Source: Chitinophaga pinensis (lineage in GTDB: Bacteria; Bacteroidota; Bacteroidia; NS11-12g; UBA955). Taken from it: a stretch of 64,000 nucleotides of DNA. This document shows, in pieces, positions 7,020-54,678 of the stretch. The position numbers and the translations under genes are program-made. The stretch covers positions 32,143-96,142 of the forward strand of contig CAMBXL010000008.1 in assembly GCA_945871905.1 (NCBI GenBank), written 5' to 3'. How positions within the stretch are numbered: position 1 is the stretch's first letter; each line of letters opens with the position of its first letter. The notes under the pieces were generated by a model. The model saw nothing but the letters and a program-made list of their open reading frames with translations. It made no database searches and was not told where the DNA came from.

Positions 7020-8639
7020 ATGAAAAGAATATTTCTATTTAAATCGTTTGTTTTCGCCCTTTTAACCCTTTTATCTACGGATATTTTATGGGCACAAAAG
7101 TCAGGAAAAAAAGAAACAACAGCACCAGCAACCCAAGTTTCTAACCCAACTGTAACTTCTCCAACTAGCTCAACTTCCGATTTTGATTACAAAAATCCGG
7201 GTAGGGCCAAAGGGAATTATTCTATTAAAGTTAAAATTAAAGGATTGCAAAATGTGCCACTGTACCTTGCCGATAACTTTGGTGACAAAAATTACATGAG
7301 AGATACCTGTATTTTAGATGAAAATGGGGTAGGTGTCTTTACAGGAAATCCTAAACTACAAAGAGGTTTGTACCTTATTGTATTTCCAAGTATGGCATCT
7401 TACTATGAGTTACCTATTACAGATGATCAAGATTTTTATTTCGAAGCAGACACTTCCATGGATGAGTCCAAAGTTAAAGTAACAGGTTCTGAGGAAAATG
7501 AGGCTTTTGCCCAATTTCAAGGAAAAATGTACAGCTATGGCAGAGAAAGATACAAGCTTGACCAAGAACTTAAAAAAGCAAAAGAGTTGAACAATACCGC
7601 ATTATCAACTTTTGTAAAAGCTCAAATGGATTCAATGGACAAGTTGAACTTTAAAGTTAGAGAAAATTATATTGCCCAATATCCAAACCATTTGTTAACC
7701 AAAATTTTTAAAGCATTCCAACCCATTAAGTTTCCTGAAAATGTAAAGTTGGATTCTATGCAGGAGTATTATTTTTACAAAACCCACTTTTGGGACAATA
7801 TAGATTTTACAGAAGATGGATTAATTCGTGCACCTAAAGGTTTATTGGTGAATAAATTGAATGATTTTATTGACAGAGTAGTGTTCCAAGATCCTGACAG
7901 TTTGGTTTCTGCAGTGGATCAAGTATTAGGAAAAACAATCATCCATACAGAGATTCAAAAGTATTTTGTTCAATACCTAACCACGAAGTTTCAAGACAGA
8001 AAAATAATGTGTCAAGACAATGTAACGGTACACATGATTAATACCATTTATTGTCAAGGGAAAGCGTGGTGGTATGACGACACTGCTAACTTAAGAAAAA
8101 TGTGTGAAGAAGCCAAAAATGCAACGCCAACCATGTGTGGTAAAATAGCGCCCAACCTTAAAATGCAAGACACCAGTGGCCGTTTTCATATCCTGTATGA
8201 AAAATTAGGTAAGGTTACAATCCTGTTTTTTTACGACCCTACTTGCGGACATTGTAAAGAGGTTATACCTATGGTGAGCAAGGTTCACAAAAAATTGAAA
8301 AACAAAGGGGTTGTTGTTTATGCGATTTCTACAGAAGGAAAATATGCTGAATGGAAAAAAATGATGCAAGTTAATCCGGATGTGAGTCAATGGATTAATG
8401 TATGCAAAACAGATCGAAATTATCCGTGGCCTATTTACCGTCAAGACTATAACATTACCGCCAATCCAACTTTGTTTGTGTTAGATGAAAATGCTAAAAT
8501 TATAGGCAAGAAAATAGATGAACATCAATTGGAGTTTTTTGTAGAGTCTATTCTATACGAAAAAGGATTGATAGATTACAAACCGACGCTTCCAAAAGAG
8601 AAGCCAGCCAAACCAAGCACAACCGAAGCGAACCAATAG
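7020..8639 (+). CDS. Exported thioredoxin-fold (TlpA/redoxin) protein with DUF4369/DUF5106-like N-terminal domains
   Basis: Signal peptide, YKTHFWDNIDF..GLIR segment, FFYDPTCGHC (CxxC), PTLFVLD. Confidence 0.75.
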   Translation: MKRIFLFKSFVFALLTLLSTDILWAQKSGKKETTAPATQVSNPTVTSPTSSTSDFDYKNPGRAKGNYSIKVKIKGLQNVPLYLADNFGDKNYMRDTCILDENGVGVFTGNPKLQRGLYLIVFPSMASYYELPITDDQDFYFEADTSMDESKVKVTGSEENEAFAQFQGKMYSYGRERYKLDQELKKAKELNNTALSTFVKAQMDSMDKLNFKVRENYIAQYPNHLLTKIFKAFQPIKFPENVKLDSMQEYYFYKTHFWDNIDFTEDGLIRAPKGLLVNKLNDFIDRVVFQDPDSLVSAVDQVLGKTIIHTEIQKYFVQYLTTKFQDRKIMCQDNVTVHMINTIYCQGKAWWYDDTANLRKMCEEAKNATPTMCGKIAPNLKMQDTSGRFHILYEKLGKVTILFFYDPTCGHCKEVIPMVSKVHKKLKNKGVVVYAISTEGKYAEWKKMMQVNPDVSQWINVCKTDRNYPWPIYRQDYNITANPTLFVLDENAKIIGKKIDEHQLEFFVESILYEKGLIDYKPTLPKEKPAKPSTTEANQ

Positions 8640-9978: not shown

Positions 9979-10587
9979 GGCCAATTTTAAACCCACAAGT
10001 AAAAAGATAATTCCCGAAATCCTATTCACCCAAATAAACCATTTAGGTTGTATGAATGGTTTTATTTTATAGGCGCCGTAGGCAATTAAAAACTCAATCA
10101 AAAAGATACTGACCAAACTACTTGCAAAAAATACAATTTTGTCGTTCAATTGGTAGTCGAAACGAATAGTAAGCATGGAGCTGATAGTAAGCCAACTGAA
10201 AAAATTAACTGGATTTACAATATTGATTAAAAAGCCATTGGAGATGAAATAAAAAACAGAATTATTAGGATTGTCGAAAGCAATGCCTTCTTTGATGTTT
10301 ACGTTTTTTTTGAAGAACATAAATAGCCCCATAAGTGCTAAAATACTACCTCCCGAAACGGAAATTAAAAGTTCGTATTGTTTTAAGAACACAGCAAATC
10401 CGTGACTTAAAAGCGCTAAACTAATAAAGATGATGTCACTTGCTATGACCCCCAAAGCAATGTAAACACCTGTTTTGTAACCATAAATCAAACTGTTTCT
10501 AATAAGGGCAAAAAAAACAGTCCCAAGCATTAAACTGAGTGCTATGCCTGTTACAAAACCTTGGAATGAACATGTCAAAAAATGCAT
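9961..10587 (-). CDS. LysE family translocator
   Basis: GTVFFALIRNSL.YG..TG..IALGV..SD, GFLINIVNP. Confidence 0.8.
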   Translation of the reverse strand: MHFLTCSFQGFVTGIALSLMLGTVFFALIRNSLIYGYKTGVYIALGVIASDIIFISLALLSHGFAVFLKQYELLISVSGGSILALMGLFMFFKKNVNIKEGIAFDNPNNSVFYFISNGFLINIVNPVNFFSWLTISSMLTIRFDYQLNDKIVFFASSLVSIFLIEFLIAYGAYKIKPFIQPKWFIWVNRISGIIFLLVGLKLALGQFI

Positions 10588-10633
10588 ACTTAAAATTATT
10601 TTATTAAATGCTTAAAATAAGCTTTGCAAATTA

Positions 10634-10641
10634 TAACTTTG
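10634..10641 (+). promoter_or_regulatory. Bacteroidota -7 promoter element upstream of rbfA
   Basis: TAACTTTG 10 nt before the rbfA ATG. Confidence 0.55.
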
Positions 10642-10651
10642 CAATTGAATA

Positions 10652-11023
10652 ATGAGCACAAGAATAGAAAAATTTAACAGAGAGATTCAGCGTGAATTAG
10701 GCGTTATCTTTCAAACCAAAACCAATGATTGGTTTGGAGGCGCTTTTGTGACCGTAACCGAAGTTAGCTCAAGCCCTGATTTAAGTTATGTAAAGGCTTA
10801 TTTAAGTATTTTGAATGCTCCAAGCAATCAAGTTATATTTGCTATTATTCAGGATAATAATAAGTTGATAAGAAAAGAATTGGCCAATAAAATCAAAAAT
10901 GCAGTGCGTATTATTCCTGAATTGCAGTTTTTTGAAGACGAAAGTTTGGAAAAAGTAGCCAAATTTGAAAAAATATTCGAAAACTTAAGAAAAGAAAGAG
11001 AATCTCGAAACACAGAAGAATAA
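10652..11023 (+). CDS. rbfA: Ribosome-binding factor A
   Basis: VTVTEV..SPDLSYVKAYLS, IRKELA..I...VRIIPELQFFED. Confidence 0.92.
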   Translation: MSTRIEKFNREIQRELGVIFQTKTNDWFGGAFVTVTEVSSSPDLSYVKAYLSILNAPSNQVIFAIIQDNNKLIRKELANKIKNAVRIIPELQFFEDESLEKVAKFEKIFENLRKERESRNTEE

Positions 11024-11033
11024 CTGAACTAAA

Positions 11034-11837
11034 ATGCCTGATTCTTGTAATACCGATATTTTTTCTCAATCCTTGGACAATCACTCATGGTTGAGACGGT
11101 TTTATCACTATTTCTCTGATAATTTATTATTAAAAAACAAGATTTTAAAGCGTGAAATAGCCATTTGTAGTAAACGTAAAACCAAAGTTCAACACGTTTT
11201 TTACCCTGGTTTTGGTATTGGGCAGTTGCTTACTTTGTTTTATAATAAGCAAAAATACAATGTGTTTGCTATAGATTGTAACCCAAGTTTTGTGTCTAAA
11301 TCCACCACCTTTTTACAAAGCGAAAGTGTTAAAAATATTTATTGTAAAACAGAAAATGTGACCACTTATGTCAAACCCGAAAGTTTTGATTTGTCGCTGT
11401 GTGTTAATCTTCTCAATTATATAGAAAATGATGTAGAGGTTCTCCAAAATTTTTATACCAATTTAAAAAGTCCCGGAGTGTTGGTGTTATTTAACTCGAG
11501 CAATTATGCCGACCAAAGGGATACTAAGCTCTCTACAGGGATATACAAAGACAACACTTACCGCTTGGGATATAGTTTGGTTGAAATTAAAAGTAAGTTA
11601 AAACAAGCAGGTTTTGCTAAAGTAAAAGCTCGATATGTGTATGGTTTCCCGGGAGTATTGAGTTGGAAATTAACCACAGGGTGGCCTTCGTATGTCATCA
11701 AAAAATCGAGTTTGTTTTTTGCTTTCTTGCCATTGTATGTGGTTCTTGCCATTGTTCCCGTTTTTGTACTTAATCTTTTGGATATAGGCTTCCCTCATAC
11801 CAAGGGCAAATGTATTGTCGTAAAAGCGTTTAAATAA
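11034..11837 (+). CDS. Class I SAM-dependent methyltransferase-fold protein (degenerate motif I)
   Basis: VFYPGFGIGQ, VFAID, FDLSLCVNLLNYIENDVEVLQNFY..LKSPGVLVL. Confidence 0.7.
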   Translation: MPDSCNTDIFSQSLDNHSWLRRFYHYFSDNLLLKNKILKREIAICSKRKTKVQHVFYPGFGIGQLLTLFYNKQKYNVFAIDCNPSFVSKSTTFLQSESVKNIYCKTENVTTYVKPESFDLSLCVNLLNYIENDVEVLQNFYTNLKSPGVLVLFNSSNYADQRDTKLSTGIYKDNTYRLGYSLVEIKSKLKQAGFAKVKARYVYGFPGVLSWKLTTGWPSYVIKKSSLFFAFLPLYVVLAIVPVFVLNLLDIGFPHTKGKCIVVKAFK

Positions 11838-11838
11838 T

Positions 11839-13041
11839 TTGGCATTTTCACAATTCATAGCGTTTCGGTATTTGTTTGCCAAAAAGAAAAGAAATGCCAT
11901 CAATATCATTTCATCTATTGCTGTTTTAGCATTCACAGTTTGTACCACCGCCTTAATTATTATTTTAAGTACCATGAACGGTTTCGAAGAATTAATTTTT
12001 TCGATGTACAATAAATTTAACCCCGATATTAAAATTACACCTATCGAAGGTAAGTTTTTTGAATACCAATCAACCCTTGCTAAAGTTAAAAAAATAGAGG
12101 GAGTGGCATTTGTAATGCCTAGTTTAGAAGACCATGCCGTAGTGAGAAATCACGACTATCAAACGATTTGTACTGTAAAGGGGGTTGATGACCGTTATTT
12201 TAAAATTAATGATTTAGAAGGTCGAATTTCTGAAGGTGAAGCTTTGTTAAGCGAAAAAAATGTACCATTGATGGTTTTGGGATCAGGCGTAGGAGTTAAG
12301 GTCAATGCCTCAACAACAGGTCCCTTCAGTCAGTTAACCGTTATCACACCACGAAGAGGCGATTACAGTGTCAGTGACCCTGAAGCAGTCAATCAGTTTT
12401 TGATACAACCCTCGGGACTGATTACACTTGATGAAGCCATAAGCAATAAGTATGTTTTTGTTCCAATGTCCTTTGCCGAACAACTTTTTGAAACCAATGG
12501 GAAAGCAAGTTCCCTTGAAATAAAATTACACAAAAATGCCAATGAGGAAAAAGTGTATCAAGCCATTCAAAATCTATTAGGTAAAGAATTTAAAGTTCAA
12601 AACAGAATGGAACAGCAAGCCACTTTGTACAAAATGTTTAAAAGCGAAAAATGGGCAAGTTTTGCAATTCTTACTTTTATTCTACTCATAGCGGCCTTCA
12701 ATGCACTTGGCAGTTTGACGATGTTGGTTATTGAAAAAAAAGAGGATATTTCTACATTGATAAGTATGGGCGCATCCAAACGGATAATTCAAAAAATATT
12801 CTTTTCCATAGGGTTTCTAATTTCCTTTTTTGGAGCATTTTTAGGTCTGTTGATTGGTTTAGGTTTGGTTGCTTTGCAACAATCTACAGGTTTTATTAAA
12901 ATGCAAGGAGCCATAGTGGACAGTTACCCCGTAAAAATAAAAGGGGAGGACATTCTTTTAGTCCTGTTTACGGTATTATTTCTCGGATTAATCGTTGGGA
13001 TTTTGCCAGCCCGAAAATCAGTTTCAATTGTTAAAAAGTAA
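11839..13041 (+). CDS. FtsX-like / LolC-E type ABC transporter permease
   Basis: IAFRYLFAKK, STMNGFE, IAAFNALGSLTMLVIEKKEDI..L.SMGA. Confidence 0.88.
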   Translation: MAFSQFIAFRYLFAKKKRNAINIISSIAVLAFTVCTTALIIILSTMNGFEELIFSMYNKFNPDIKITPIEGKFFEYQSTLAKVKKIEGVAFVMPSLEDHAVVRNHDYQTICTVKGVDDRYFKINDLEGRISEGEALLSEKNVPLMVLGSGVGVKVNASTTGPFSQLTVITPRRGDYSVSDPEAVNQFLIQPSGLITLDEAISNKYVFVPMSFAEQLFETNGKASSLEIKLHKNANEEKVYQAIQNLLGKEFKVQNRMEQQATLYKMFKSEKWASFAILTFILLIAAFNALGSLTMLVIEKKEDISTLISMGASKRIIQKIFFSIGFLISFFGAFLGLLIGLGLVALQQSTGFIKMQGAIVDSYPVKIKGEDILLVLFTVLFLGLIVGILPARKSVSIVKK

Positions 13042-13106
13042 TGGAGATTTCGTCAGAACTTTTTTTAAATCAATCTGTTGAACTATTACTTTTGTATCCA
13101 TAAGCT

Positions 13107-14780
13107 TTGAGTCTATTCCAAACCAATATTAACGCTATCGTTTCAGGCCTTTATGCTCATGGAATAAATGATGTAGTGATCAGTCCAGGAAGTAGAAATG
13201 CGCCTATTATTATGGCATTTGTTAGACACCCACATTTTCAATGTTGGTCTGTCCCCGATGAAAGGTCGGCGGGATTTATTGCGTTAGGAATTGCAAAAGC
13301 TCAACAAAAACCTGTGGTACTTTTGTGTACCAGTGGTTCAGCTTTGGTTAATTACTATCCAGCCATTGTCGAAGCTTACTACATGCAAGTGCCTTTGATT
13401 GTGATTAGTGCCGACCGACCTGAAAAAATGCTAGACCGTTGGGATGGGCAAACCATTCATCAATTTGATATTTTCAACCGCCATGTTTATGGGTCGTACC
13501 AAACCCCTGAAAATTTGGATGTTAATCAGTTCACTAAAATATTTGAAATCACAGACCAACTTTATTTGCAATGCAATGAAGCTATCAAAGGACCTGTTCA
13601 CCTGAATGTGCCTTTGCGTGAACCTTTGTACGAAGCAGCAAAAACTGTTTTTGAATATCCCCATTACAAGGTTGTGAAAAAAGCAGAAGTAAATGAAGTA
13701 GAATGGGAAATAGGGATAGATTCTGAACATTTCTTTCAAGATTTTCCTAAAGTGATGGTTTTGCTAGGGGCCAATGACCCCACTGATGCATACAGTGAAC
13801 TTAAGGAAATGGTGGATTACCGATTTGCGCTTGTTATTGCCGATGTTATATCGAATGCGCATGCTTATGGGACTTTCAAAAATATTGAATTGTATTTGCT
13901 CTCTGCCACTGAAGCGCAAAAGAAAATGTTGGCTCCCGATTTGTTAATCACAACAGGGCAAATGATTATCAGCAAACCATTAAAACAGTTGCTAAGGTCT
14001 AACCCTCCGAAGCAACATTGGCATATTGCCGAAAATGGATACTGTGCGGACCCGTTTTTCTCGGAACCGCAGGTTTTGCAAATGAATCCGCTCGACTTTT
14101 TTAAGCAGTTTAAAAAATATTTACCGCAAGTGCCTTCAAAATATGTGTCTGATATTTCGAATAATGTAGAACAATTAAAGGGTAAAATAAAATGGTCGCA
14201 GTTTGGAGAATTGTCTGCCATAACTGAAGTATTAAATGCCCTTCCAGAAAAGATTGGGCTGCATTTGTCAAACAGTATGACGATTCGAAATGTCTCTTTT
14301 TTAGGCGAATACATTAAAGAACATTGGTGTGTTTATGGAAACAGAGGCGTAAGTGGTATTGATGGATGTACAAGTACGGCCGTTGGAATGGCTATTGCGC
14401 AACCCCATTTATTACAGGTGTTGATTACAGGCGATGTTGCCTTTTTTTATGACATTAATGCTTTTTGGCATTCGTATTCAATCCCTAACTTTAAGGTCGT
14501 TTTAATGAATAATTCTGGAGGAGGAATTTTTGATATTATCGATGGGCCAAGCCAATTGCCAGAACTGAATCCATACATTAAAACACCTCATCAATTCAAT
14601 GCAAAAGACATTGCAAACCATTATAAATTGAATTATTTTTGTGCAAATGATAACAACAGTTTGAAGGATGCATTAAAGGCATTTTTGCAAAGTGAAACTT
14701 GTAGCATTTTGGAAATACAGACAGATTCAATAAGCAATCAATCAATTATTAAAAATATAAAATCTATACAATATGAGTAA
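13107..14780 (+). CDS. menD: SEPHCHC synthase (menaquinone biosynthesis)
   Basis: [58 protein letters not shown]. Confidence 0.95.
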
Positions 14781-36028: not shown

Positions 36029-38887
36029 ATGAAAAAGATTTATTCAATGAGTATTGCCATCTTGTTTATGGCTACCAATTTTGTACACGCTCAGAGTACA
36101 GCCACTTTAGTAAAAAAAGTGGAAGCACAGCCCGGAAAGCTCGTTATTCCATACGAAAAATACCGTTTACCTAACGGTTTAACAGTTATTATTAACGAAG
36201 ATCACAGTGATCCAATCGTGCATGTTGAGGTAACTTACCACGTAGGTTCAAACAGAGAAACACCAAGAAGAACTGGATTTGCCCACTTTTTTGAACACAT
36301 GATGTTCCAAGGTTCACAAAACGTTGCAGACGAAGAGCATTTTAAAATAGTTCAAGGTTCGGGTGGAGACATGAACGGAACCACTAACCGTGATAGAACT
36401 AACTATTTTGAAACAGTTCCTAGCAATATGTTAGAAACGGCATTGTGGTTAGAGTCTGACAGAATGGGTTTTTTATTACCAGCCTTTACTAACAAGAAAT
36501 TTGAAACGCAAAGAGCTACGGTAAAAAATGAAAAAGACCAACGTTATGCCAATGGATACGGTATGTTGCCAGAAATTCAAGACCAAACCATTTACCCATA
36601 TGCTCACCCATACAGCTGGCAAACAATTGGTTATGTTGATGATTTAAACGCAGCCGATTCTAATGATTTGAAAAATTTCTTTTTGAAATGGTATGGTCCT
36701 AACAACGCTATTTTAGTGATTTCGGGAGATGTAAATACACAAGCAGCATTGCAAATGGTAGAAAAGTATTTTGGTTCTATCAGTAGAGGTGTTGATGTGC
36801 CTGCATTATCAAAAAAACCTGTTACTCTAGAAGAAGTAAAAATTAAAAATGTTGACAGTAAAGTGCAATTGCCACTTTCTAGTATTACTTACCCAACAGT
36901 GCCAACTTTCCACAATGATGAAGCTGCACTTGATATTTTAGCTAGTATTTTAAGTGATGGTAAAAACTCATATTTATACAAACAATTCGTTGACAACGGA
37001 AGTGCTTTACAAGCTTCATGTTCAAACAGTACTTATGAAGTTGCTGGTGAATTCAATTTCATGATTGTTACTTATCCTGCTATGATGGGAGGTTTAAGTG
37101 AAAAAGAAATGAGAGAAGAATTAGCGAGAGCTTTACTGGCTTTTGAAGCACAAGGTTTTTCAGACGAAGATTTAAAAAGAATCAAACAAACTTACACTTC
37201 AAGATATTTTGGTATTTTGGAAACAGTAGCATCAAAAGCAAGTGTATTAACCTCATACGAAATGTTATTGCCAACGCGTGATTTTACAATTCAAGATGAT
37301 ATTAACAGATACGAAAAAGTAACAAAAGCGGATATAATGAGAGTTTACAATCAATATATCAAAGGTAAAAACTACGCTTGTGTTAACATTATGCCTCATC
37401 CAGATTACGTAAACAATAGAAATGCTAAGATTAAACCTTACGAAAGTGAAAATCCTTATGCAACAGTATCTCCTGATAAAACAGCTTACCAAGGTTTAGT
37501 TTACAAACCAAATGTGGACGCACCAGGATTTGACCGTAGCAAAAAACCAGTAGTTGCACCAGCAAAACCAGCTATTGTTCCTGAGTTTTTCAAAAACAAA
37601 TTTGAAAATGGGTTACAAGTTGTAGGAACAAAAAGTTCAGAAACACCAAGAGTATACATCAACATGGACATTAAAGGTGGTCACTTGTTTGAAGTAGGTA
37701 AAGTGAAAAATGGTACTGCTGTTATGCTTGGTATGATGATGAATGAAGGAACTACTACCAAAACTGCATTGGATGTTGAGAATAAATTGAAAGAATTAGG
37801 TAGTGAAATAAACTTTAGCAGTAATGGAAATAACATGTCTGCTTATGTAGAATGTTATAAAGATAAAGTTTCTGAGACTATGCAAATTTTTGAAGACCTA
37901 TTCTTCAATCCTGCATTCAACGAAAAAGATTTTACTACCAACAGAAAAGCTTTGTTGCAATCTATGGAGAACAATGCTTACGATGAAAACTATTTTGCTA
38001 GTAAAAAATTCAATGAGATGTTATATGGTAATGACAATCCAATTGGCGTAATGGCATTGTCTGATTACAGCGTTGCTAGTAAAATTACAATTGCAGATTT
38101 GAAAAACTACCACTCTAATTTCATGTCGCCTAACTTAGCTTCAATTACTATTATTGGAGATATAGATGAAGCAACAGCTCTTCAAAACTTAGCGTTCTTG
38201 AAAAAATGGGAAAATAAAAAATTAGAAATCCCAACTTATAATAAATTCCCTGCTTTAACTGCTCCACAAATTTTATTGGTCAACCAAGATTACGCAAAAC
38301 AAACCAATATAACAATGGGTTACAGATCGATTCCTTCAGAGTTTTTTGGTGATTATTATAAAGCATCAATTATGAACTTTGCTTTTGGTGGAGCCTTTAA
38401 CAGCCGTTTGAACCTAAACATAAGAGAAGACAAAGGTTGGACTTATGGAATTCGTTCAGGTTTCCGTTCTCCAAGTATGGGTTATCCAAGTACATTTATT
38501 GTGAGTGCAGGTGTAAAAGCTTCTGCTACAGATAGCTCAATCATAGAGGTTTTAAAAGAAATGAAAAACTATGCTACGAATGGTATCACTGATGAAGAGT
38601 TAGATTTTACTAAAAAATCATTGTTAGGAAGTGATGCATTAAAATACGAAAGTCCAAGTGATAAATTAGGATTTTTGAGCACTATAGTTCAATACAATTT
38701 AGATAGAAACTACAATGCACAAAGAGCAGAAATAGTTAAAAACATTACAAAAGAAGAAATCAATGCATTAGCTAAAAAATTGTTAGCTTTAGATAATTTA
38801 GTCATCATGTGTGTAGGCGATGATTTGAAAATCAAAGAAGGCTTAGAAAAATTAGGCTACGGCAAAGTAAAAGTAATGAAAATGTAA
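36029..38887 (+). CDS. M16 family zinc protease (insulinase/PqqL-like), single-chain
   Basis: GFAHFFEHMMF (HxxEH), NGTTNRDRTNYFE, WYGPNNA, RLNLNIREDKGWTYG. Confidence 0.92.
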   Translation: MKKIYSMSIAILFMATNFVHAQSTATLVKKVEAQPGKLVIPYEKYRLPNGLTVIINEDHSDPIVHVEVTYHVGSNRETPRRTGFAHFFEHMMFQGSQNVADEEHFKIVQGSGGDMNGTTNRDRTNYFETVPSNMLETALWLESDRMGFLLPAFTNKKFETQRATVKNEKDQRYANGYGMLPEIQDQTIYPYAHPYSWQTIGYVDDLNAADSNDLKNFFLKWYGPNNAILVISGDVNTQAALQMVEKYFGSISRGVDVPALSKKPVTLEEVKIKNVDSKVQLPLSSITYPTVPTFHNDEAALDILASILSDGKNSYLYKQFVDNGSALQASCSNSTYEVAGEFNFMIVTYPAMMGGLSEKEMREELARALLAFEAQGFSDEDLKRIKQTYTSRYFGILETVASKASVLTSYEMLLPTRDFTIQDDINRYEKVTKADIMRVYNQYIKGKNYACVNIMPHPDYVNNRNAKIKPYESENPYATVSPDKTAYQGLVYKPNVDAPGFDRSKKPVVAPAKPAIVPEFFKNKFENGLQVVGTKSSETPRVYINMDIKGGHLFEVGKVKNGTAVMLGMMMNEGTTTKTALDVENKLKELGSEINFSSNGNNMSAYVECYKDKVSETMQIFEDLFFNPAFNEKDFTTNRKALLQSMENNAYDENYFASKKFNEMLYGNDNPIGVMALSDYSVASKITIADLKNYHSNFMSPNLASITIIGDIDEATALQNLAFLKKWENKKLEIPTYNKFPALTAPQILLVNQDYAKQTNITMGYRSIPSEFFGDYYKASIMNFAFGGAFNSRLNLNIREDKGWTYGIRSGFRSPSMGYPSTFIVSAGVKASATDSSIIEVLKEMKNYATNGITDEELDFTKKSLLGSDALKYESPSDKLGFLSTIVQYNLDRNYNAQRAEIVKNITKEEINALAKKLLALDNLVIMCVGDDLKIKEGLEKLGYGKVKVMKM

Positions 38888-38912
38888 GATCGTTTTATTT
38901 TGATTTAATTTT

Positions 38913-38945
38913 AAAAAACCGACATCAATTGATGTCGGTTTTTTT
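38913..38945 (+). terminator. Intrinsic terminator after the M16 peptidase
   Basis: AAAAAACCGACATC-AATT-GATGTCGGTTTTTTT. Confidence 0.85.
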
Positions 38946-39112
38946 GTTTAAAGGGTTTATGTAGTGAAGAGTGATTGTTTAGTTGTTGAGGTGTTTAGTT
39001 GTTTATTTGTTTAAAGGGTTGAAAAGGTTTAAAGGGTTTAAATGTTCCACGCCGATCAGTGTGATTGTTTATTTGTTTAGGTGTTTATTCGTTTGTTTGT
39101 TTAAAGGGTTTA
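38943..39112. repeat. 8-mer-periodic low-complexity direct repeats (two 50-nt units, 45/50 identical)
   Basis: Units at 38971-39020 and 39061-39110. TTTAAAGGGTT occurs four times. Confidence 0.8.
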
Positions 39113-39117
39113 ATTAT

Positions 39118-39277
39118 CACCCACTAGGCTGAGCCTAGCCACTTGAGTTATTCAGCTATGCTGAATAGTACCGAAGGGTGTCAAAAAGGTTAGATTGTCA
39201 TCGGTATAGACGCCATGCTTGGCGTCTGTTAATTAGAAATTCCAATAGTCATTATGGAAAATTTTGTCCTCAAAATT
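39118..39277. repeat. Stack of short palindromes (REP-like)
   Basis: CTAGGCT-G-AGCCTAG, TATTCAGC-TAT-GCTGAATA, AGACGCCA-TGCT-TGGCGTCT, AAATTTTG-TCCT-CAAAATTT. Confidence 0.7.
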
Positions 39278-39296
39278 TATTCAGAATCTATTAATG

Positions 39297-39324
39297 GCTG
39301 TCATACCGACAACGGAGGTATCTC
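39297..39324 (+). repeat. Element X, copy 1 (REP-like hairpin)
   Basis: GCTGTCATACCGACAACGGAGGTATCTC, 22/28 identical to the inverted copy at 39932-39959. Confidence 0.75.
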
Positions 39325-39475
39325 GGTTCTCATTGATAAGCTGCCTGATAAAGTTAATAGTTTCCTGAAGCCTCTGGAGGTTAATAGTTAATGGTTTTAA
39401 AATTCATAAATCAAAAATCCTTCTTAGGTTTCCAAAGGTGCCATTCAATGCGGTGGTTTTTGAGGGTGAACGAAA

Positions 39476-39610
39476 ACTGTGCGGAGGCGTCCACGAATGG
39501 CGCGAAATTTTAATTTGACAGCTTGGGGAGCTGGTGTGTGTGTTAAGGCAAATTGAAGTTTTTCATTCGTGGTGGGTTTTTTGCTTACTTTTTTCTCATA
39601 AAAAAGTAAG
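39476..39610 (+). repeat. Element Y, copy 1 (structured repeat / candidate ncRNA)
   Basis: CCACGAATG/CATTCGTGG stem, inner AAATTTTAATTTG/CAAATTGAAGTTT stem, terminal CTTACTTTTTT/AAAAAAGTAAG hairpin. Confidence 0.65.
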
Positions 39611-39710
39611 AAAGAGATTAAAAGTAAATGAAGATTTTATCGCAAAACCGTTAAAATTTGAGTTAAGGTTTTAACTCCGAATGAAATTTTATCTTAACTT
39701 TAAAATCTTT

Positions 39711-39850
39711 TTTCTTTTGATGTTAAAAGAAACAAAAACCACCACCCAATCAAAAATTCCGTTTTTGTGGCTGCAGGCTCGGCTGCCTATCCACAAAAGG
39801 GAATTTTCACGCATTGGCTGTTCCGAGGCTTCGGAACACAGCCGCACGGT
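39711..39850 (-). repeat. Element Y, copy 2 (inverted)
   Basis: Reverse complement shares ACYGTGCGG, AATG.CGYGAAA and TGGTGG-TTTTTG-TT(A/T)CTTTT...AAAAG with copy 1, with equivalent stems. Confidence 0.65.
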
Positions 39851-39931
39851 AACTTAAAAAAAGTTGGAATAAGGTATGAAAAAATGGAGTCGTTAAGAAG
39901 CTCTGGTTCATTTAATAAAAGCTGTCAGGAA

Positions 39932-39959
39932 GAGATGTCTCCTTTGTCAACATGACAGC
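39932..39959 (-). repeat. Element X, copy 2 (inverted)
   Basis: Reverse complement GCTGTCATGTTGACAAAGGAGACATCTC. Confidence 0.75.
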
Positions 39960-40088
39960 AGGGAAATAGTGGATAGTCCGAATAGCTATCGGGAAATGGT
40001 TTCACGCCATTCAGCGTGTGGTTAATAGTTTTAAAAATCTTCAATCTTTACGTTCTATTGATATCTAAAGAGTAAAACCCAAATAGAA

Positions 40089-42941
40089 TTATAACCCAAT
40101 CGATTTATATAAAATATCGTGGATTTTGATGCGGTAATTTCCGTTTATTAGTTCCTTGTTTTCCTCATCAGGACAAATGCGATTACTTAAAAACACAAAT
40201 ACCAAATTATATTTAGGGTCGGCCCAAGCACATGTACCTGTAAAGCCCGTATGGCCAAATGTCAATGGACTGCCAAAAATACTTGCAGGACTTGTATTGC
40301 CACTAAAATCGGGTTTGTCAAATCCCAATCCACGACGGCTGTCTCCTCTTTGATAGGCAGTAAACCTTTGTATTGTTGATGATTTAATGTATTCTTTGCC
40401 TTTGTATGTGCCACCATCATTAATCATTAGCATCAATTGTGCTAGGTCTTGAGCATTCGAGAAAACTCCCGCATGTCCACTAACTCCTCCCAACATTGCT
40501 GCCCCTGGGTCGTGAACATAGCCGCAAATTTCTTGTTGCCTAAACAATCGGTCCATTTGTGTAGGTGCAATGTTGTTGCGATCATGTATTTTCCATGGAT
40601 TATATCCCATGCTATTGAGTTGCATCGGTTTGTAAAAATGTGTTGAAACATACTCGTCTAATGCTTGTCCTGTAATATTTTCAACGACTAATTGCATCAA
40701 CATTAACCCCAAATCACTGTAGCGATAGACTCTTGATTCAAGTGGTGAAGTAAAAATTCTTTTGTAAAGTGTGTCTTTGTTTGCTTTGAGCATAAAGAAA
40801 TTATCAGCTACTTTAATGCAATAGGCTGAATCTTCTTTAGCGCAATAAATACTATCAATAAATGGCAAGGTCTCTTTGTAAAAGGGAATCCATGCCTTTA
40901 GACCAGCTCTGTGTTGAAGCACTTCGCTGATAACAAGTGAACCTTTGTTTGTTCCTATGGCTTGTGGCACATAGTCGCCTATGGTTTTGTTTAAATCCAA
41001 GCGCCCTTCGTCAAAAAGTTTCATAACAGCCAATGTAGTAGAGGCTATTTTAGTAATAGAGGCAATGTCGTAAATAGTTTGTTCGTTTACTCTTGTAGAT
41101 TTGTCATAATTGAGATGTCCAAATGATTTGTTGTAAATAACTTGACCATCTTTAATCGCAATAATTCGACATCCCGGCGCTCCTTTTTTGTCAATTAATT
41201 GAGAAACAATAGGGTCTATGTCTTTTAATATGGTAGAATCCACCCCTAAAGCGTTGGCTTTGTAGTTTTTGGTTGTTGGTAGATTTATTGTTGGAGTTTG
41301 TGGGGTAATAAAAACAGGTAAGGTTCCAACAGGTTTGATGATGCCATAAAGAACATCTGCACTTGCTTTCTGAAAATAACTTAAGTCTTCGTAGGCATTA
41401 ATTAAGGTTATATTTTTGTTGAACTTTGCCAATACATAAGGATTTGCAAAATTCACAACGATTAATTTCTTTTTGTTGGCCAATTGGTTGATAAATTGAA
41501 TATCGGTGTTTTCAAAACCTGCCGTTTGTTGATTCCATACTTTGGGTTGGTGCAAACTAATAATAACCTGTTTGTATTCGCTAAGGCTAATAATGGCTTG
41601 GTTTTGTTTGCTAAGCGGACTGCCTTTAGCCAAACGAATGACTTTAACATTGTCGTGTTTTTTGAGGTATTCACTCCACATAGATTGGTCTAAATCACCT
41701 ATTGTGACAAGTGCGGTTTTCTCATTCTTATTAATCGGAATTAAGTTTTTACTGTCTGAGAATAAGGTAATGGTTTGATTGGCTATCGATTGAATAAGGG
41801 CTTCATTTTCTTTGCCTTGCAAATCAATCGTTAATGAATCAAGGTCGATTGGGGCGTAGTTGTTTAAACCTGCAAATTCTTTCCATTTTAGTATTTTTCT
41901 GACCCTGTGGTTCAATTCGTCTTCAGAAATTTGCGCATTTAAAATAGCGGATTTTATGAGTTCAAATGCCAAGGGTACATTTTCGCTAAAAAGCAAAACA
42001 TCGTTTCCTGCCAAAAAAGCTTCAAGGTCAACATAACCTGGGGCAAAGTGTTTGGCAACGCCTTTCATATTCAGCGCATCTGTAAAAACAAGACCTTCAA
42101 ACTTCATGGTTTGTTTCAATAAAGTATCAATAACAAATTTAGAAAGAGAAGTCGAGCGGTTTGGTCTGTTGTCCAAAGCGGGATATTGAAGGTGTGCAAC
42201 CATGATGGAGGCCACTCCATTTTTTATTAATTCTCTAAATGGATAAAGCTCTAAAGTGTCAAGCTCTGCTAATGTTTTGTTTACAACAGGCAAGTCCTTG
42301 TGAGAATCTATAGAAACGTCACCGTGGCCAGGAAAATGTTTGGCACAAGAGAGAACACCTTCGCTGAGCATTCCATTGCTGTAGGCGGTTCCAAACTTTG
42401 CTACTTTTTCTTTTTTATCACCAAAGGCCCTGAAGCCAATAATGGGATTGTTTGGATTGTTGTTGATATCAATATCTGGGGCAAAGTTGATATGAATACC
42501 TAGTCGTTTACATTGTTTTGCCAAGGCAGAACCGTATTGAAAAACCAGAGAATCATTAGGTAAAGCCCCTAAAGTGATGGCATACGGAAACTTTTGAGTG
42601 TTTTGCAAACGCATAGAAAGTCCCCATTCTCCGTCAATTCCAATCATTAGAGGCGTGTTTGAAAGAGATTGGTAGTAATTGGTTAAATACGCTTGTTTAA
42701 GAGGACTGTTTTGAAAAAAAATCAATCCTCCGATGTGGTATTTTAAAATTAACTCTTCTATTTGTGCGGTGTGACTTGCTTCTTTGTTTGAATAGGCTGC
42801 CACCATAAATAACTGACCGATTTTTTCGTCGATTGTCATTTTTTTCAATTGGTGGTCATACCAAAAATCGGCATCTTGTGCATTGGATTTGAGGGCACAA
42901 AATAGGAGAGAGGCAAAAAGAACAAATCTATAGATAGTCAA
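40089..42941 (-). CDS. GH3 beta-N-acetylglucosaminidase fused to a beta-lactamase-family serine hydrolase
   Basis: IGIDGEWG, NFAPDID, KHFPGHGD, FTDALNM; C-terminal DIASITK (SxxK), YSDLG, GHTGFTG. Confidence 0.92.
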   Translation of the reverse strand: MTIYRFVLFASLLFCALKSNAQDADFWYDHQLKKMTIDEKIGQLFMVAAYSNKEASHTAQIEELILKYHIGGLIFFQNSPLKQAYLTNYYQSLSNTPLMIGIDGEWGLSMRLQNTQKFPYAITLGALPNDSLVFQYGSALAKQCKRLGIHINFAPDIDINNNPNNPIIGFRAFGDKKEKVAKFGTAYSNGMLSEGVLSCAKHFPGHGDVSIDSHKDLPVVNKTLAELDTLELYPFRELIKNGVASIMVAHLQYPALDNRPNRSTSLSKFVIDTLLKQTMKFEGLVFTDALNMKGVAKHFAPGYVDLEAFLAGNDVLLFSENVPLAFELIKSAILNAQISEDELNHRVRKILKWKEFAGLNNYAPIDLDSLTIDLQGKENEALIQSIANQTITLFSDSKNLIPINKNEKTALVTIGDLDQSMWSEYLKKHDNVKVIRLAKGSPLSKQNQAIISLSEYKQVIISLHQPKVWNQQTAGFENTDIQFINQLANKKKLIVVNFANPYVLAKFNKNITLINAYEDLSYFQKASADVLYGIIKPVGTLPVFITPQTPTINLPTTKNYKANALGVDSTILKDIDPIVSQLIDKKGAPGCRIIAIKDGQVIYNKSFGHLNYDKSTRVNEQTIYDIASITKIASTTLAVMKLFDEGRLDLNKTIGDYVPQAIGTNKGSLVISEVLQHRAGLKAWIPFYKETLPFIDSIYCAKEDSAYCIKVADNFFMLKANKDTLYKRIFTSPLESRVYRYSDLGLMLMQLVVENITGQALDEYVSTHFYKPMQLNSMGYNPWKIHDRNNIAPTQMDRLFRQQEICGYVHDPGAAMLGGVSGHAGVFSNAQDLAQLMLMINDGGTYKGKEYIKSSTIQRFTAYQRGDSRRGLGFDKPDFSGNTSPASIFGSPLTFGHTGFTGTCAWADPKYNLVFVFLSNRICPDEENKELINGNYRIKIHDILYKSIGL

Positions 42942-52442: not shown

Positions 52443-52472
52443 TTTGTTTTATTAAATCTTATTTTATATTTG
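52443..52472 (+). promoter_or_regulatory. Bacteroidota sigma-70 promoter (-33 TTTG / -7 TAnnTTTG)
   Basis: TTTG at 52443-52446 and TATATTTG at 52465-52472, directly upstream of the riboswitch. Confidence 0.7.
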
Positions 52473-52479
52473 CACCCGA

Positions 52480-52675
52480 TAACGGTTCTTTTTTGTAGAT
52501 GTTTACTTATAAAAAAGATTAAAAGGGAATTGGGTGTAAGTCCCAAACATTTCCCGATGCTGTAAGTTTTTGCATTGTTTATTCAATGCCCTTTTTTTGA
52601 AATAATAACCACTGTTGACTTTGTTGATGGGAAGGTTCAAAAAAAGCAAAAAAACAAGTCAGAAGACCTGCCTTT
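52480..52675 (+). promoter_or_regulatory. Cobalamin (B12) riboswitch
   Basis: GGTTC...AAAAGGGAA-TTGGGTGTAAGTCCCAA...CCCGATGCTGTAAG...CCACTG...GGGAAGG...AAGTCAGAAGACCTGCC, upstream of a TonB receptor. Confidence 0.93.
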
Positions 52676-52782
52676 GTCAAACAAATTTTCAATGCTTTCG
52701 GAGAAAAGGCAAGAAAAGGTAAGTGTCATACATTTGTCATTTCGTTTTTTTTCTATTGTATTGATTTTAAAGAGAAATTAAA

Positions 52783-54678
52783 ATGAAAGGTCTATACATC
52801 ATCTGCTTGTTGTTTTGCCAAGGACTTATCCTTGAGGCACAAAACCTCAACGACACTTTGTTGTTGAAAGGCTATGATTTTAAATGGACTAAATCCAACC
52901 ATCCCACCGGAACCCTATCTATTTCTTTGCCTTTTGGTGAATCGCAAACATTAAGTGATGCCATTGGTAGTCAAACTTCTCTTTTCGTAAAACAGTATTC
53001 ACCAAGCAATTTAGCCACAGTTTCTATGCGTGGAATGGGAGCGCAACATACTTCAATGCTGTGGAATGGAATTAATTTGCAGAGTTGCATGAATGGACTC
53101 AAGGATTTGAATCTGATTCCTTTGTTTTTTATTGATGAAGCAAGTATTGAAACTGGTGCAAACTCTAGTTTAATGGGACACGGAACCATCGCAGGAACAG
53201 TGCAATTGAAAAACCAATTGGAGAATGAAAAAAGAATAAAATTGGATATAAATAGAGCTAGTTTTAACAATCAAAGTATCGGATTCTCAATTTCTGGAGT
53301 TAATAAATACTTTAAACACCGTACTCGAATTGTTTACAGGTCGGGAGAAAATGATTTTGAATTTGTTAATTATTTTAAAAGAGAATTGCCCATTGAAAGA
53401 ATTCAAAACAACCAATTGAAACAGATGGGTTTGATGCAAGAATTTTCGTGGGTTATAAAAAAACATTCTTTTTATTTCAATACTTGGTTGATGCAAACAA
53501 GTAGAAATCTTCCAAGTCCCACAGGTGTCGTTAATAATTCTAATGAGTACCAAGAGGATTTTAACTACAAAATGTATTTGCAACACCAATTCAAAATATC
53601 TGCTAAAAGCAAGTTAAGCCAAAAGCTATGTTACATTGATGAATTTCTCAACTATTATAACAATGCCTTATTGCCTTCTCATAGTCGTTCTAAGTCTGCC
53701 ATTTTGGAATCTGAATGGAACACGCAGTTAAACCCCAATCTTGAATTTACAAGCAATGCCAACTTTACCCACCAACTTGCTTTTTCTGATGGGTATCGAA
53801 TGGGCGTAACCCGAAATGTGTTTACTTTGTTTCAAAGATTAGATTGGTACAATAATTCTCGCCGAAATAAACTTTCATTTTCTGTTCGTGAATTGTTTTA
53901 CGACAACAGAATTGCACCTCTTTCACCTGAGTTAGGGCTCGAAAAAAAGCTGAGTAAAAAATGGATGTTGAAATCAAATGCTGCCCTTAGTTTCCGTTTA
54001 CCAACTTTTAATGATTTGTATTGGCAGCCGGGAGGAAATGGTGATTTGAAGCCAGAAAAAGGCAGAAAAGCAGAAGTAACCGCTTTGTATAACACACGTC
54101 ATTGGGAGTTTTCTGTAACAGCCTTTAAACATGTGGTTGAAAATTGGATCATGTGGTTGCCAACCCAAAGTGCTGCTATTTGGATTGCCCAAAATGCTAA
54201 ACAGGTCAAAAGCAATGGACTAGAGTTTAACCAAACCCTTCATAAAGCATTTTTTCAAAAACATCATTTTAGAGTTATAACGCGATACCAATTTGTAAAA
54301 ACTATAAATACAGAAACCTACCAAAATCAATTGGTGCAGTTAGGAAAACAATTGATTTATACGCCTAATCACACCGGTGTTTTGAATCTGGATTACAGAT
54401 ACAAGTCTTTTAATGTATTTGCGGAATCACAATATATTGGAGTGCGATACTCTCAGTCTGACCAACATATTAACAGCAAGTTGGACGACTATTTACTCTT
54501 TAATTCTGGTGTTTCTATACGATTGAATACCAAACGACACCAAGGTACTCTTGTGTTTGCGGTCAAAAATATTTTCAATCGCACTTATCAAGTCATGGAA
54601 AATAGACCTATGCCTCTCAGAAATTATCAATTAACTTTAAAAATAAATATCAATTATGACTCAAAAAATCAACGTTAA
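52783..54678 (+). CDS. btuB: TonB-dependent receptor, BtuB-like
   Basis: Plug motif S.RGMGAQHTSMLWNGI.LQS, LSFRLPTFNDLYW..GGN.DLKPE, KNIFN..YQ...RPMP.RNY; riboswitch context. Confidence 0.85.
   Translation: MKGLYIICLLFCQGLILEAQNLNDTLLLKGYDFKWTKSNHPTGTLSISLPFGESQTLSDAIGSQTSLFVKQYSPSNLATVSMRGMGAQHTSMLWNGINLQSCMNGLKDLNLIPLFFIDEASIETGANSSLMGHGTIAGTVQLKNQLENEKRIKLDINRASFNNQSIGFSISGVNKYFKHRTRIVYRSGENDFEFVNYFKRELPIERIQNNQLKQMGLMQEFSWVIKKHSFYFNTWLMQTSRNLPSPTGVVNNSNEYQEDFNYKMYLQHQFKISAKSKLSQKLCYIDEFLNYYNNALLPSHSRSKSAILESEWNTQLNPNLEFTSNANFTHQLAFSDGYRMGVTRNVFTLFQRLDWYNNSRRNKLSFSVRELFYDNRIAPLSPELGLEKKLSKKWMLKSNAALSFRLPTFNDLYWQPGGNGDLKPEKGRKAEVTALYNTRHWEFSVTAFKHVVENWIMWLPTQSAAIWIAQNAKQVKSNGLEFNQTLHKAFFQKHHFRVITRYQFVKTINTETYQNQLVQLGKQLIYTPNHTGVLNLDYRYKSFNVFAESQYIGVRYSQSDQHINSKLDDYLLFNSGVSIRLNTKRHQGTLVFAVKNIFNRTYQVMENRPMPLRNYQLTLKININYDSKNQR

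Follow-up and report, generated by a model that had tools for sequence, protein, structure and literature searches.

A multicopy family of structured, mosaic intergenic repeats in freshwater Bacteroidota, seen as a convergent pair between an M16 peptidase gene and a GH3 gene

The window, i.e., the whole 64,000-nucleotide stretch of DNA that was analyzed, contains a 1.2-kb gap between two convergent genes. On its left flank lies an M16 zinc peptidase gene (36029..38887, + strand) with a canonical bidirectional terminator at 38913-38944, and on its right flank a gene encoding a GH3/beta-lactamase-fold fusion protein, beta-N-acetylhexosaminidase-like (40089..42941, - strand). A T9SS CHU_C domain is encoded near the gap, and together with the protein matches it assigns the window to an uncultured member of the Bacteroidota. 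No credible ORF was found within the gap, and the stretch occurs in sequencing runs of metagenomes from lakes, drinking water and rivers. Inside the gap sit two copies of an element, here called Y, which face each other. Directly 3' of the M16 terminator, a G/T-rich 78-nt tandem duplication (GTTTAAAGGGTT..., 78% identical) occupies 38946-39113 and is kept in the related loci L128 and L137.

Copy A (copy 1) extends over 39467-39618 on the + strand and copy B (copy 2) over 39859-39700 on the - strand, with ~85 nt between their facing 3' ends. A preliminary description of this stretch had listed a series of motifs common to both units, and on re-reading the sequence all of them were present at their positions in each copy. 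The motif ACYGTGCGG reads ACTGTGCGG at 39476-39484 (+) and ACCGTGCGG at 39850-39842 (-); AATG.CGYGAAA reads AATGGCGCGAAA at 39496-39507 in copy 1 and AATGCGTGAAA in copy 2; and TGGTGG, the T-run and the A/U terminal hairpin are seen in both. The compensatory stems that had been described also exist: the outer stem is CGAAT/ATTCG in copy 1 versus CCAAT/ATTGG in copy 2, the next stem is AAATTTTAA/TTGAAGTTT versus AAAATTCC/GGAATTTT, and copy 2 carries the additional GGCTG-TTCCGA/TCGGAA-CAGCC hairpin.

The core of copy 1, of subfamily A (39467..39583, +), was defined by sequence, fold and a covariance model match of 131.3 bits. It begins at the 5' end with AACGAAAACTGTGCGG, continues with a short P0 hairpin (GGA-GGCG-TCC), P1 (CCACGAATG/CATTCGTGG), a GCGC bulge and P2 (GAAATTTTAATTTG/CAAATTGAAGTTTT), whose 32-nt apical part is conserved, and ends in GGTGGG and the T-run. 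Its terminal A/U-rich hairpin (39576..39618, +) is made of the T-run, GCTTACTTTTTT / AAAAAAGTAAG with arms at 39584-39594/39600-39610, and an A-rich tail. The core of copy 2, of subfamily B (39731..39859, -; defined likewise, 88.8 bits), has the order ACCGTGCGG, a long P0 hairpin, P1 (CCAAT/ATTGG), a GCGT bulge, P2 (GAAAATTCC-TTTTGTGG / CCACAAAA-GGAATTTTT), GGTGGTGG and the T-run, and its terminal A/U-rich hairpin (39700..39735, -) reads TTTCTTTT-AACATC-AAAAGAAA, with arms at 39711-39718/39725-39732 and flanking T/A runs. The spacer between the convergent copies (39614..39699) holds moderately conserved downstream blocks, i.e., AATGAAGATTTTATCGCAAAACCG for A and its reverse complement motif for B, together with a small hairpin, GAGTTAAGGTTTTAACTC.

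RNA folding z-scores against dinucleotide shuffles were -2.65 for copy A and -2.96 for copy B. The covariance model scores of copies A and B (131/89 bits) correspond to E-values of ~1e-34 and ~1e-22 in the 64-kb window; since both copies were in the model-building alignment, these scores express the fit to the family model and are not an independent test. The covariance model gave no third Y copy in the 64-kb window, and no second copy of any gap module was found elsewhere in it. Taken alone, the short motifs occur at chance frequency within the window, so the case depends on the whole units and on their homologs.

Independent homologs, the collection of which had been proposed as a check on the preliminary description, were found in other genomes and in metagenome contigs. 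Pattern scans, BLAST and a covariance model for which 17 copies were aligned revealed a total of ~25 Y copies in 14 loci. A first, looser motif pattern was run over species-representative genomes, where the matches listed were mostly chance matches in high-GC genomes and included at least six true copies (five type A, one type B-like); a stricter pattern yielded eight further copies in metagenome contigs. In viral contigs the loose pattern gave two matches, both due to chance, and the refined patterns gave none; the plasmid and phage collections contained no match to Y. The carriers are freshwater Bacteroidota with ~34-36% GC and DNA ~90% identical to the window, with the exception of L041, a more distant MAG whose GH3 protein is 75% identical. 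Relatives of copy 1, ~95% identical, are present in L118, L137, L096, L132 and others, and relatives of copy 2 in L124, L126 and L128 are 93-99% identical from P1 onward. At the orthologous GH3 loci of relatives L001-L004 (74-90% protein identity), Y is absent from that site. A literature search returned no description of such a repeat family. The Y pair consists of one member of subfamily A (+) and one of subfamily B (-), in a multicopy family of structured modules, ~120-150 nt long, that is lineage-specific.

The preliminary description could not assign the element to a named family, and this agrees with our searches. At the gathering score, Rfam 15 recognized in the window and six related loci only tRNAs and, elsewhere, a cobalamin riboswitch; at E<=10, the interval 38800-40200 gave only scattered chance matches of simple hairpins to miRNA/sRNA models, and a tRNA/tmRNA search found nothing on the Y elements. 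The cobalamin riboswitch (RF00174, 91.5 bits) is located at 52466-52689 (+), directly 5' of an ORF at 52783-54678 and a series of co-oriented ORFs. A riboswitch or cis-leader assignment of Y was rejected because no co-oriented gene lies downstream, with the window copies facing each other and the element standing after the gene at most loci. Integron attC sites were likewise rejected, as the copies are scattered in ordinary intergenic DNA, with neither arrays nor an integrase in the loci and flanking ORFs examined.

Comparison of the homologs separates subfamily A, subfamily B and L041, which constitutes a third diverged lineage. All three have a common order: a 5' single-stranded stretch ending in GUGCGG, a P0 hairpin of variable length, the long P1-P2 hairpin, GGUGG, 5-6 U residues and an A/U-rich hairpin. 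P1 and P2 are separated by a 3-4-nt bulge inside the constant GCGYGAAA, and the unpaired motifs (GUGCGG, the GCGYGAAA bulge, and GGUGG with its U-run) are constant while the stems change. Across the 20 pairs of P1-P2, standard pairing was found in 97.9% of alignment cells, and both sides were changed in 8 of the 20, a count that is inflated by a one-base shift of the MAFFT register between A and B in P1. In 500 column shuffles, neither the observed P1-P2 paired fraction nor the covariation score was reached, and when the partners were slid by 1-3 columns, P1-P2 pairing fell to 38-62%. At one P1 position, A has G-C, B has C-G and L041 has A-U. The lineages are only ~72-74% identical overall, yet they keep this architecture through two-sided pair changes. 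Within subfamilies there are additional one-sided C-G to U-G changes and one double change (L014), but a few pairs are broken as well; mismatch-creating changes are about as common there as G-U-creating ones. The sense strand folds more stably than the antisense strand, by 3-20 kcal/mol, in all 16 copies tested.

These results bear on three claims of the preliminary description. Covariation does hold in the sense that the stems are kept by compensatory and G-U changes in the homologs, but about three diverged lineages stand behind it, not many; its independent information comes from these ~3 lineages and depends partly on the alignment register. The 'inner variable hairpin' differs between the two subfamilies and is ~95% conserved within each, and is variable only in the former respect. 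The proposed selection on single-stranded structure is supported by a strand-specific fold and by stems preserved across homologs.

As DNA, Y is repetitive. In three metagenomes, contig depth over Y was several-fold to ~30-fold that of flanking single-copy genes, which implies ~4-30 Y copies per genome: in X1 the genes had a depth of 10.8, the A halves 157 and 40, and B 28-64; in X5 the genes had ~3 versus 94 for the element; and in X10 ~7 versus 140-200. Copies occur singly, in convergent A/B pairs (the window, L062 twice, and L126), in divergent pairs (L058, L132 and L130) that have a common central region, and in L132 as a tandem A-A with a 286-nt period. Nested insertions are present, including two terminator variants with added inserts; one A copy has its P2 split by another repeat module, some B copies have a small hairpin in place of GCGTGAAA, and some Y copies are truncated. 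In L062 (1182-1360 and 3302-3450) and L126 (9880-10043 and 13930-14090), read in the orientation of the B copy, long 5' parts of unrelated sequence are fused to the B 3' domain. These long 5' parts are ~150-200 nt, mutually dissimilar, non-coding and without an Rfam match; they are closed by a covarying stem (GCTATAAC/GTTATAGC versus CTATATC/GATATAG) and have a constant CTAATGYTAACARTGCGTGAAAA junction.

Presence at orthologous sites is variable. On the GH3 side, L118 has A and lacks B; on the M16 side, L128 has B and a different body behind an A-type upstream block, and L137 has A without B. Both L128 and L137 carry a T9SS cargo gene at the position where the window has none. L096 carries an A copy 3' of the POT transporter gene; the sequence at this position in the window is unrelated. 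The Y elements themselves are 90-96% conserved, about equal to the neighboring coding DNA, with the remainder of the gap being unalignable. All 24 tabulated copies are intergenic, at least 14 of them downstream of a co-oriented gene, and their neighbors are diverse and often accessory, such as Hachiman, Panacea-type antitoxin, AbiEii and T9SS cargo proteins. In L126, within 10027-14685, a Hachiman pair (HamA 10758-11696 and helicase 11693-13939) has Y copies on both sides; a Y copy beside this pair, at 10352-10514, is split by another repeat module. The Y DNA behaves as a non-autonomous cassette that has been gained, lost, nested, truncated and recombined between ~90% identical relatives; it sits at the borders of variable genes and, in L062, immediately next to duplicated tRNA-Arg 3' ends. 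With multiple copies and variable presence at orthologous sites, the 'mobile structured repeat' half of the earlier interpretation is well supported; the 'ncRNA' half is an inference.

Two companion modules accompany the pair. A conserved upstream block, P_A (39399..39466, +; AAATCAAAAATCC...TTTCCAAAGGTGCCATTCAATGCGGTGGTTTTTG), stands before six of the 14 type-A copies. In L128, at 7087-7345, the type-A upstream block is followed by a different ~170-nt body with a similar end, CATTGTGG...CTTTTT plus an A/U hairpin; this body may represent a third body type with common 5' and 3' modules. The second module, X, is a hairpin repeat of which the window has a left half (39291..39345, +; GCTGTCATACCGACAACGGAGGTATCTC...) and a right half (39916..39965, +), the latter of a kind that follows most type-A copies in relatives. 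In the window 570 nt, including the Y pair, separate the halves; in relatives (L118 660-747 and 827-910; L137 9300-9385, 9465-9545 and 10125-10205) and elsewhere in the same genome they are adjacent, forming one ~85-nt hairpin, and contigs joining 39335 to 39917/39920 unite them. The X repeat is REPIN-like, with ~11-fold depth. Between their M16 and GH3 genes, relatives carry a T9SS cargo gene with X-type repeats on its flanks. Since the X halves are adjacent in relatives, the window cluster looks like the product of recombination or deletion between repeat copies in which the T9SS gene was removed, and this deletion explains the half-hairpins better than a role as terminal repeats of the cluster. 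A 26-nt direct repeat (GTTAATRGTTTTAAAAWTC..AATC, 85%) at 39387-39412 and 40021-40046 encloses P_A, both Y copies and the right X half. Small palindromic modules at 39209-39228, 39978-39993 and 40002-40017 (GACGCCATGCTTGGCGTC, CCGATAGCTATCGG and CACGCCATTCAGCGTG) are found again beside Y/X repeats in L118, L128, L133 and L137. The Y family is one component of an intergenic repeat mosaic that a small set of freshwater Bacteroidota carries.

A coding reading of Y was rejected: an indel lies in the ATG region common to A and B, frameshifting indels separate copies, and the long variants contain stops. The '...NVIANANNA*' frame at the junction of the long B variants was discarded as well, given in-frame stops upstream. 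A type I toxin-antitoxin with a small hydrophobic ORF was also considered and dismissed, as the possible GTG-started peptides vary in length and frame among A, B and the terminator variants; changes in A-run length shift the frame, and the small hydrophobic peptides after GGTGG are not frame-conserved.

The fold of Y is most likely used as RNA, judging from a strand-specific structure with conserved G-U pairs, constant unpaired motifs and coding-like conservation, from the P_A block before six A copies and the different L128 body with a 3' end of the same type, and from the L118 copy that is antisense to its neighbors. We prefer a reading, to which we give about an even chance, in which the copies are sense-transcribed modules whose RNA hairpins form or protect transcript ends and whose constant motifs are bound by a partner, with the DNA spreading as a non-autonomous cassette. 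RNA would then be the single strand that matters. Sense transcription of each copy would start in its own upstream block or result from read-through of a co-oriented neighbor, and the transcript would fold into the long bulged P1-P2 hairpin followed by GGUGG-U5-6, which together could form or protect the 3' end. A protein or RNA partner may read the constant unpaired motifs, and the convergent A/B pair might be a module that insulates convergent genes or ends the transcripts arriving from both sides. Against this reading stand the ~3 lineages behind the covariation, the frequency of mismatch-creating changes inside subfamilies, and the finding of no terminal inverted repeats, target duplications or transposase for Y itself in the copies and flanking ORFs compared.

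It is possible, though rather doubtful, that the copies are stand-alone sRNA genes instead, each with its own promoter and producing ~105-150-nt trans-acting 'sibling' sRNAs, where the constant single-stranded motifs are seed or protein sites and the spread is a gene-family expansion carried by surrounding repeats. Such genes would account for P_A before six A copies and before a different body with a like 3' end, and for the common central region of divergent <-A B-> pairs, but a sigma-70 promoter scan of the elements was not above chance and the B copies lack a promoter consensus, with no conserved Bacteroidetes-type promoter evident upstream of them. A TTTG box occurs 1-10 nt upstream in ~10 of 14 A copies, loosely placed and from only ~3 independent upstream types. 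The L118 copy is antisense to both neighbors, so read-through cannot give a sense transcript there, which favors stand-alone genes. The 3' end, on the other hand, is non-canonical. A terminator scan found no canonical intrinsic terminator above chance on the Y elements, although the neighboring M16 and POT genes use canonical ones; a U-run lies 5-7 nt beyond the P1 stem, and the A/U terminal hairpin has no U tail. The terminal hairpin was therefore rejected as a canonical intrinsic terminator, the U-tract being absent on its 3' side and the T-run preceding it and able to pair with the A-rich tail. Unpaired motifs that stay constant while stems vary would suit sRNAs; copies truncated or split by nested insertions, and B 3' domains fused to unrelated 5' parts, would not. 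No window sequence was detected in RNA runs among the runs listed, the estuary metatranscriptomes gave no Y match, and the RNA-Seq-labelled run X22 (assembled contigs) was uninformative, its element/gene depth ratio being about equal to that of a DNA-like run. These RNA results, the promoter findings and the non-canonical 3' end count against the preferred sense-transcribed reading as well as against stand-alone sRNA genes.

It is also conceivable, but unlikely, that the fold matters only for mobility, with hairpins and unpaired motifs acting as recognition or cleavage signals for an ssDNA transposase or recombinase, such as a RAYT/IS200-IS605-like HUH enzyme or an integrase in trans. Single-stranded DNA hairpins are also expected to show G-T pairs and strand bias, and because ssDNA transposition favors strand-specific G-T hairpins as well, this alternative stays live. 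Multiple copies, presence/absence polymorphism, nesting and the association with REPIN-like X hairpins speak for it, as do the borders that Y forms with duplicated 3' ends of tRNA-Arg. A tRNA-Arg(CCG) gene in L062 has its final 29-45 nt repeated twice downstream (542-570, 783-811 and 2901-2929 for the 3' end and its repeats), with a type-A copy directly after each repeat. Such a pattern is the mark of site-specific integration into the 3' end of a tRNA gene, and the arrangement looks like small integrative islands in tandem that lack an integrase. ORFs for an HTH-Panacea antitoxin and for a 114-aa product occupy the DNA between these tRNA-Arg repeats. A purely DNA-level role is harder to reconcile with the 26 different flanking ORFs scanned, none of which encodes a transposase, RAYT or integrase, and with the copy borders compared, which have neither a fixed target nor sharp common ends, and no common short target duplication. 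The conserved block starts with AACG/GTGCGG and ends in the A/U hairpin and downstream blocks without matching ends. Y also greatly exceeds REP and IS605 end hairpins in length and complexity, and its stems show compensatory maintenance in the more distant L041.

A bolder view, which we regard as quite improbable, is that Y elements are self-contained, promoter-bearing sRNA cassettes that spread like mobile elements and mark, perhaps regulate or recombine, the borders of defense, toxin-antitoxin and T9SS-cargo islands; the competing P0 and extended-P1 pairings predicted for the CC/GGUGG segment would be a switch deciding if the hairpin extends as far as the U-run. That Y has no function, its copies being recent neutral duplicates of junk DNA and its stems the remains of an ancestral palindrome, is very improbable in spite of the low diversity inside each subfamily and the mismatches, insertions and truncations of some copies, because three lineages ~72-74% identical keep the architecture through two-sided pair changes and Y is as conserved as coding DNA next to unalignable intergenic DNA.

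To our knowledge, the structured non-coding elements of Bacteroidota have been cataloged only poorly, and Rfam contains nothing resembling the Y family. With 10-30 copies per genome and a preserved multi-stem fold, the family offers a tractable case for how repeats turn into RNA regulators, or the reverse. It marks exchange hot spots of accessory genes (defense, toxin-antitoxin and secreted proteins) in abundant lake bacteria and is a practical warning for genome assembly and binning in these organisms. If it is only selfish DNA, Y is an ordinary addition to the bacterial mosaic repeats.

Several known systems can be compared with Y. Sibling sRNA families (Qrr, LhrC and csRNA) have 2-7 copies with demonstrated promoters, terminators and transcripts. 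Y resembles them in its paralogous ~100-nt units with common constant single-stranded motifs and variable stems; it differs in having 10-30 copies, many of them damaged and without a canonical terminator. Like MITEs, Y is multicopy, non-coding and variably present at orthologous sites, but it has no terminal inverted repeats, the inverted arms of P1/P2 being internal. REPs are simple palindromes of 20-40 nt with a 5' tetranucleotide, mobilized by RAYT, and in E. coli BIMEs/REPs are intergenic, often 3' of genes or between convergent genes, and are thought to act on transcripts as hairpins. Y is also a multicopy, intergenic mosaic of palindromic modules in varying order and orientation, and the X hairpin beside it, with two inverted ~35-nt arms, is similar to a REPIN. 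In contrast to REPs, Y is a multi-stem unit of 120-150 nt whose bulge is conserved and whose unpaired motifs are constant; it has no sequence similarity to them, and shows neither a 20-40-nt palindrome nor a RAYT in the flanking ORFs scanned. The pneumococcal BOX and neisserial Correia/NEMIS elements are modular intergenic repeats of ~100-200 nt with predicted RNA folds, strain-variable and without their own transposase, that may contain signals resembling promoters or terminators; Correia elements end in inverted repeats of 26 bp and have a duplicated TA, and BOX has the fixed order A-B-C. Y is likewise modular, multicopy, intergenic, predicted to fold as RNA and variable between relatives, in another phylum, with no sequence relation to them and without the Correia-type 26-bp ends or TA duplication. 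Greater in length and complexity than the repeats of these systems, unrelated to them in sequence and lacking their defining ends, Y is a new family of structured, multicopy, mosaic intergenic repeats whose behavior is comparable to that of BIME/REPIN, BOX and Correia elements.
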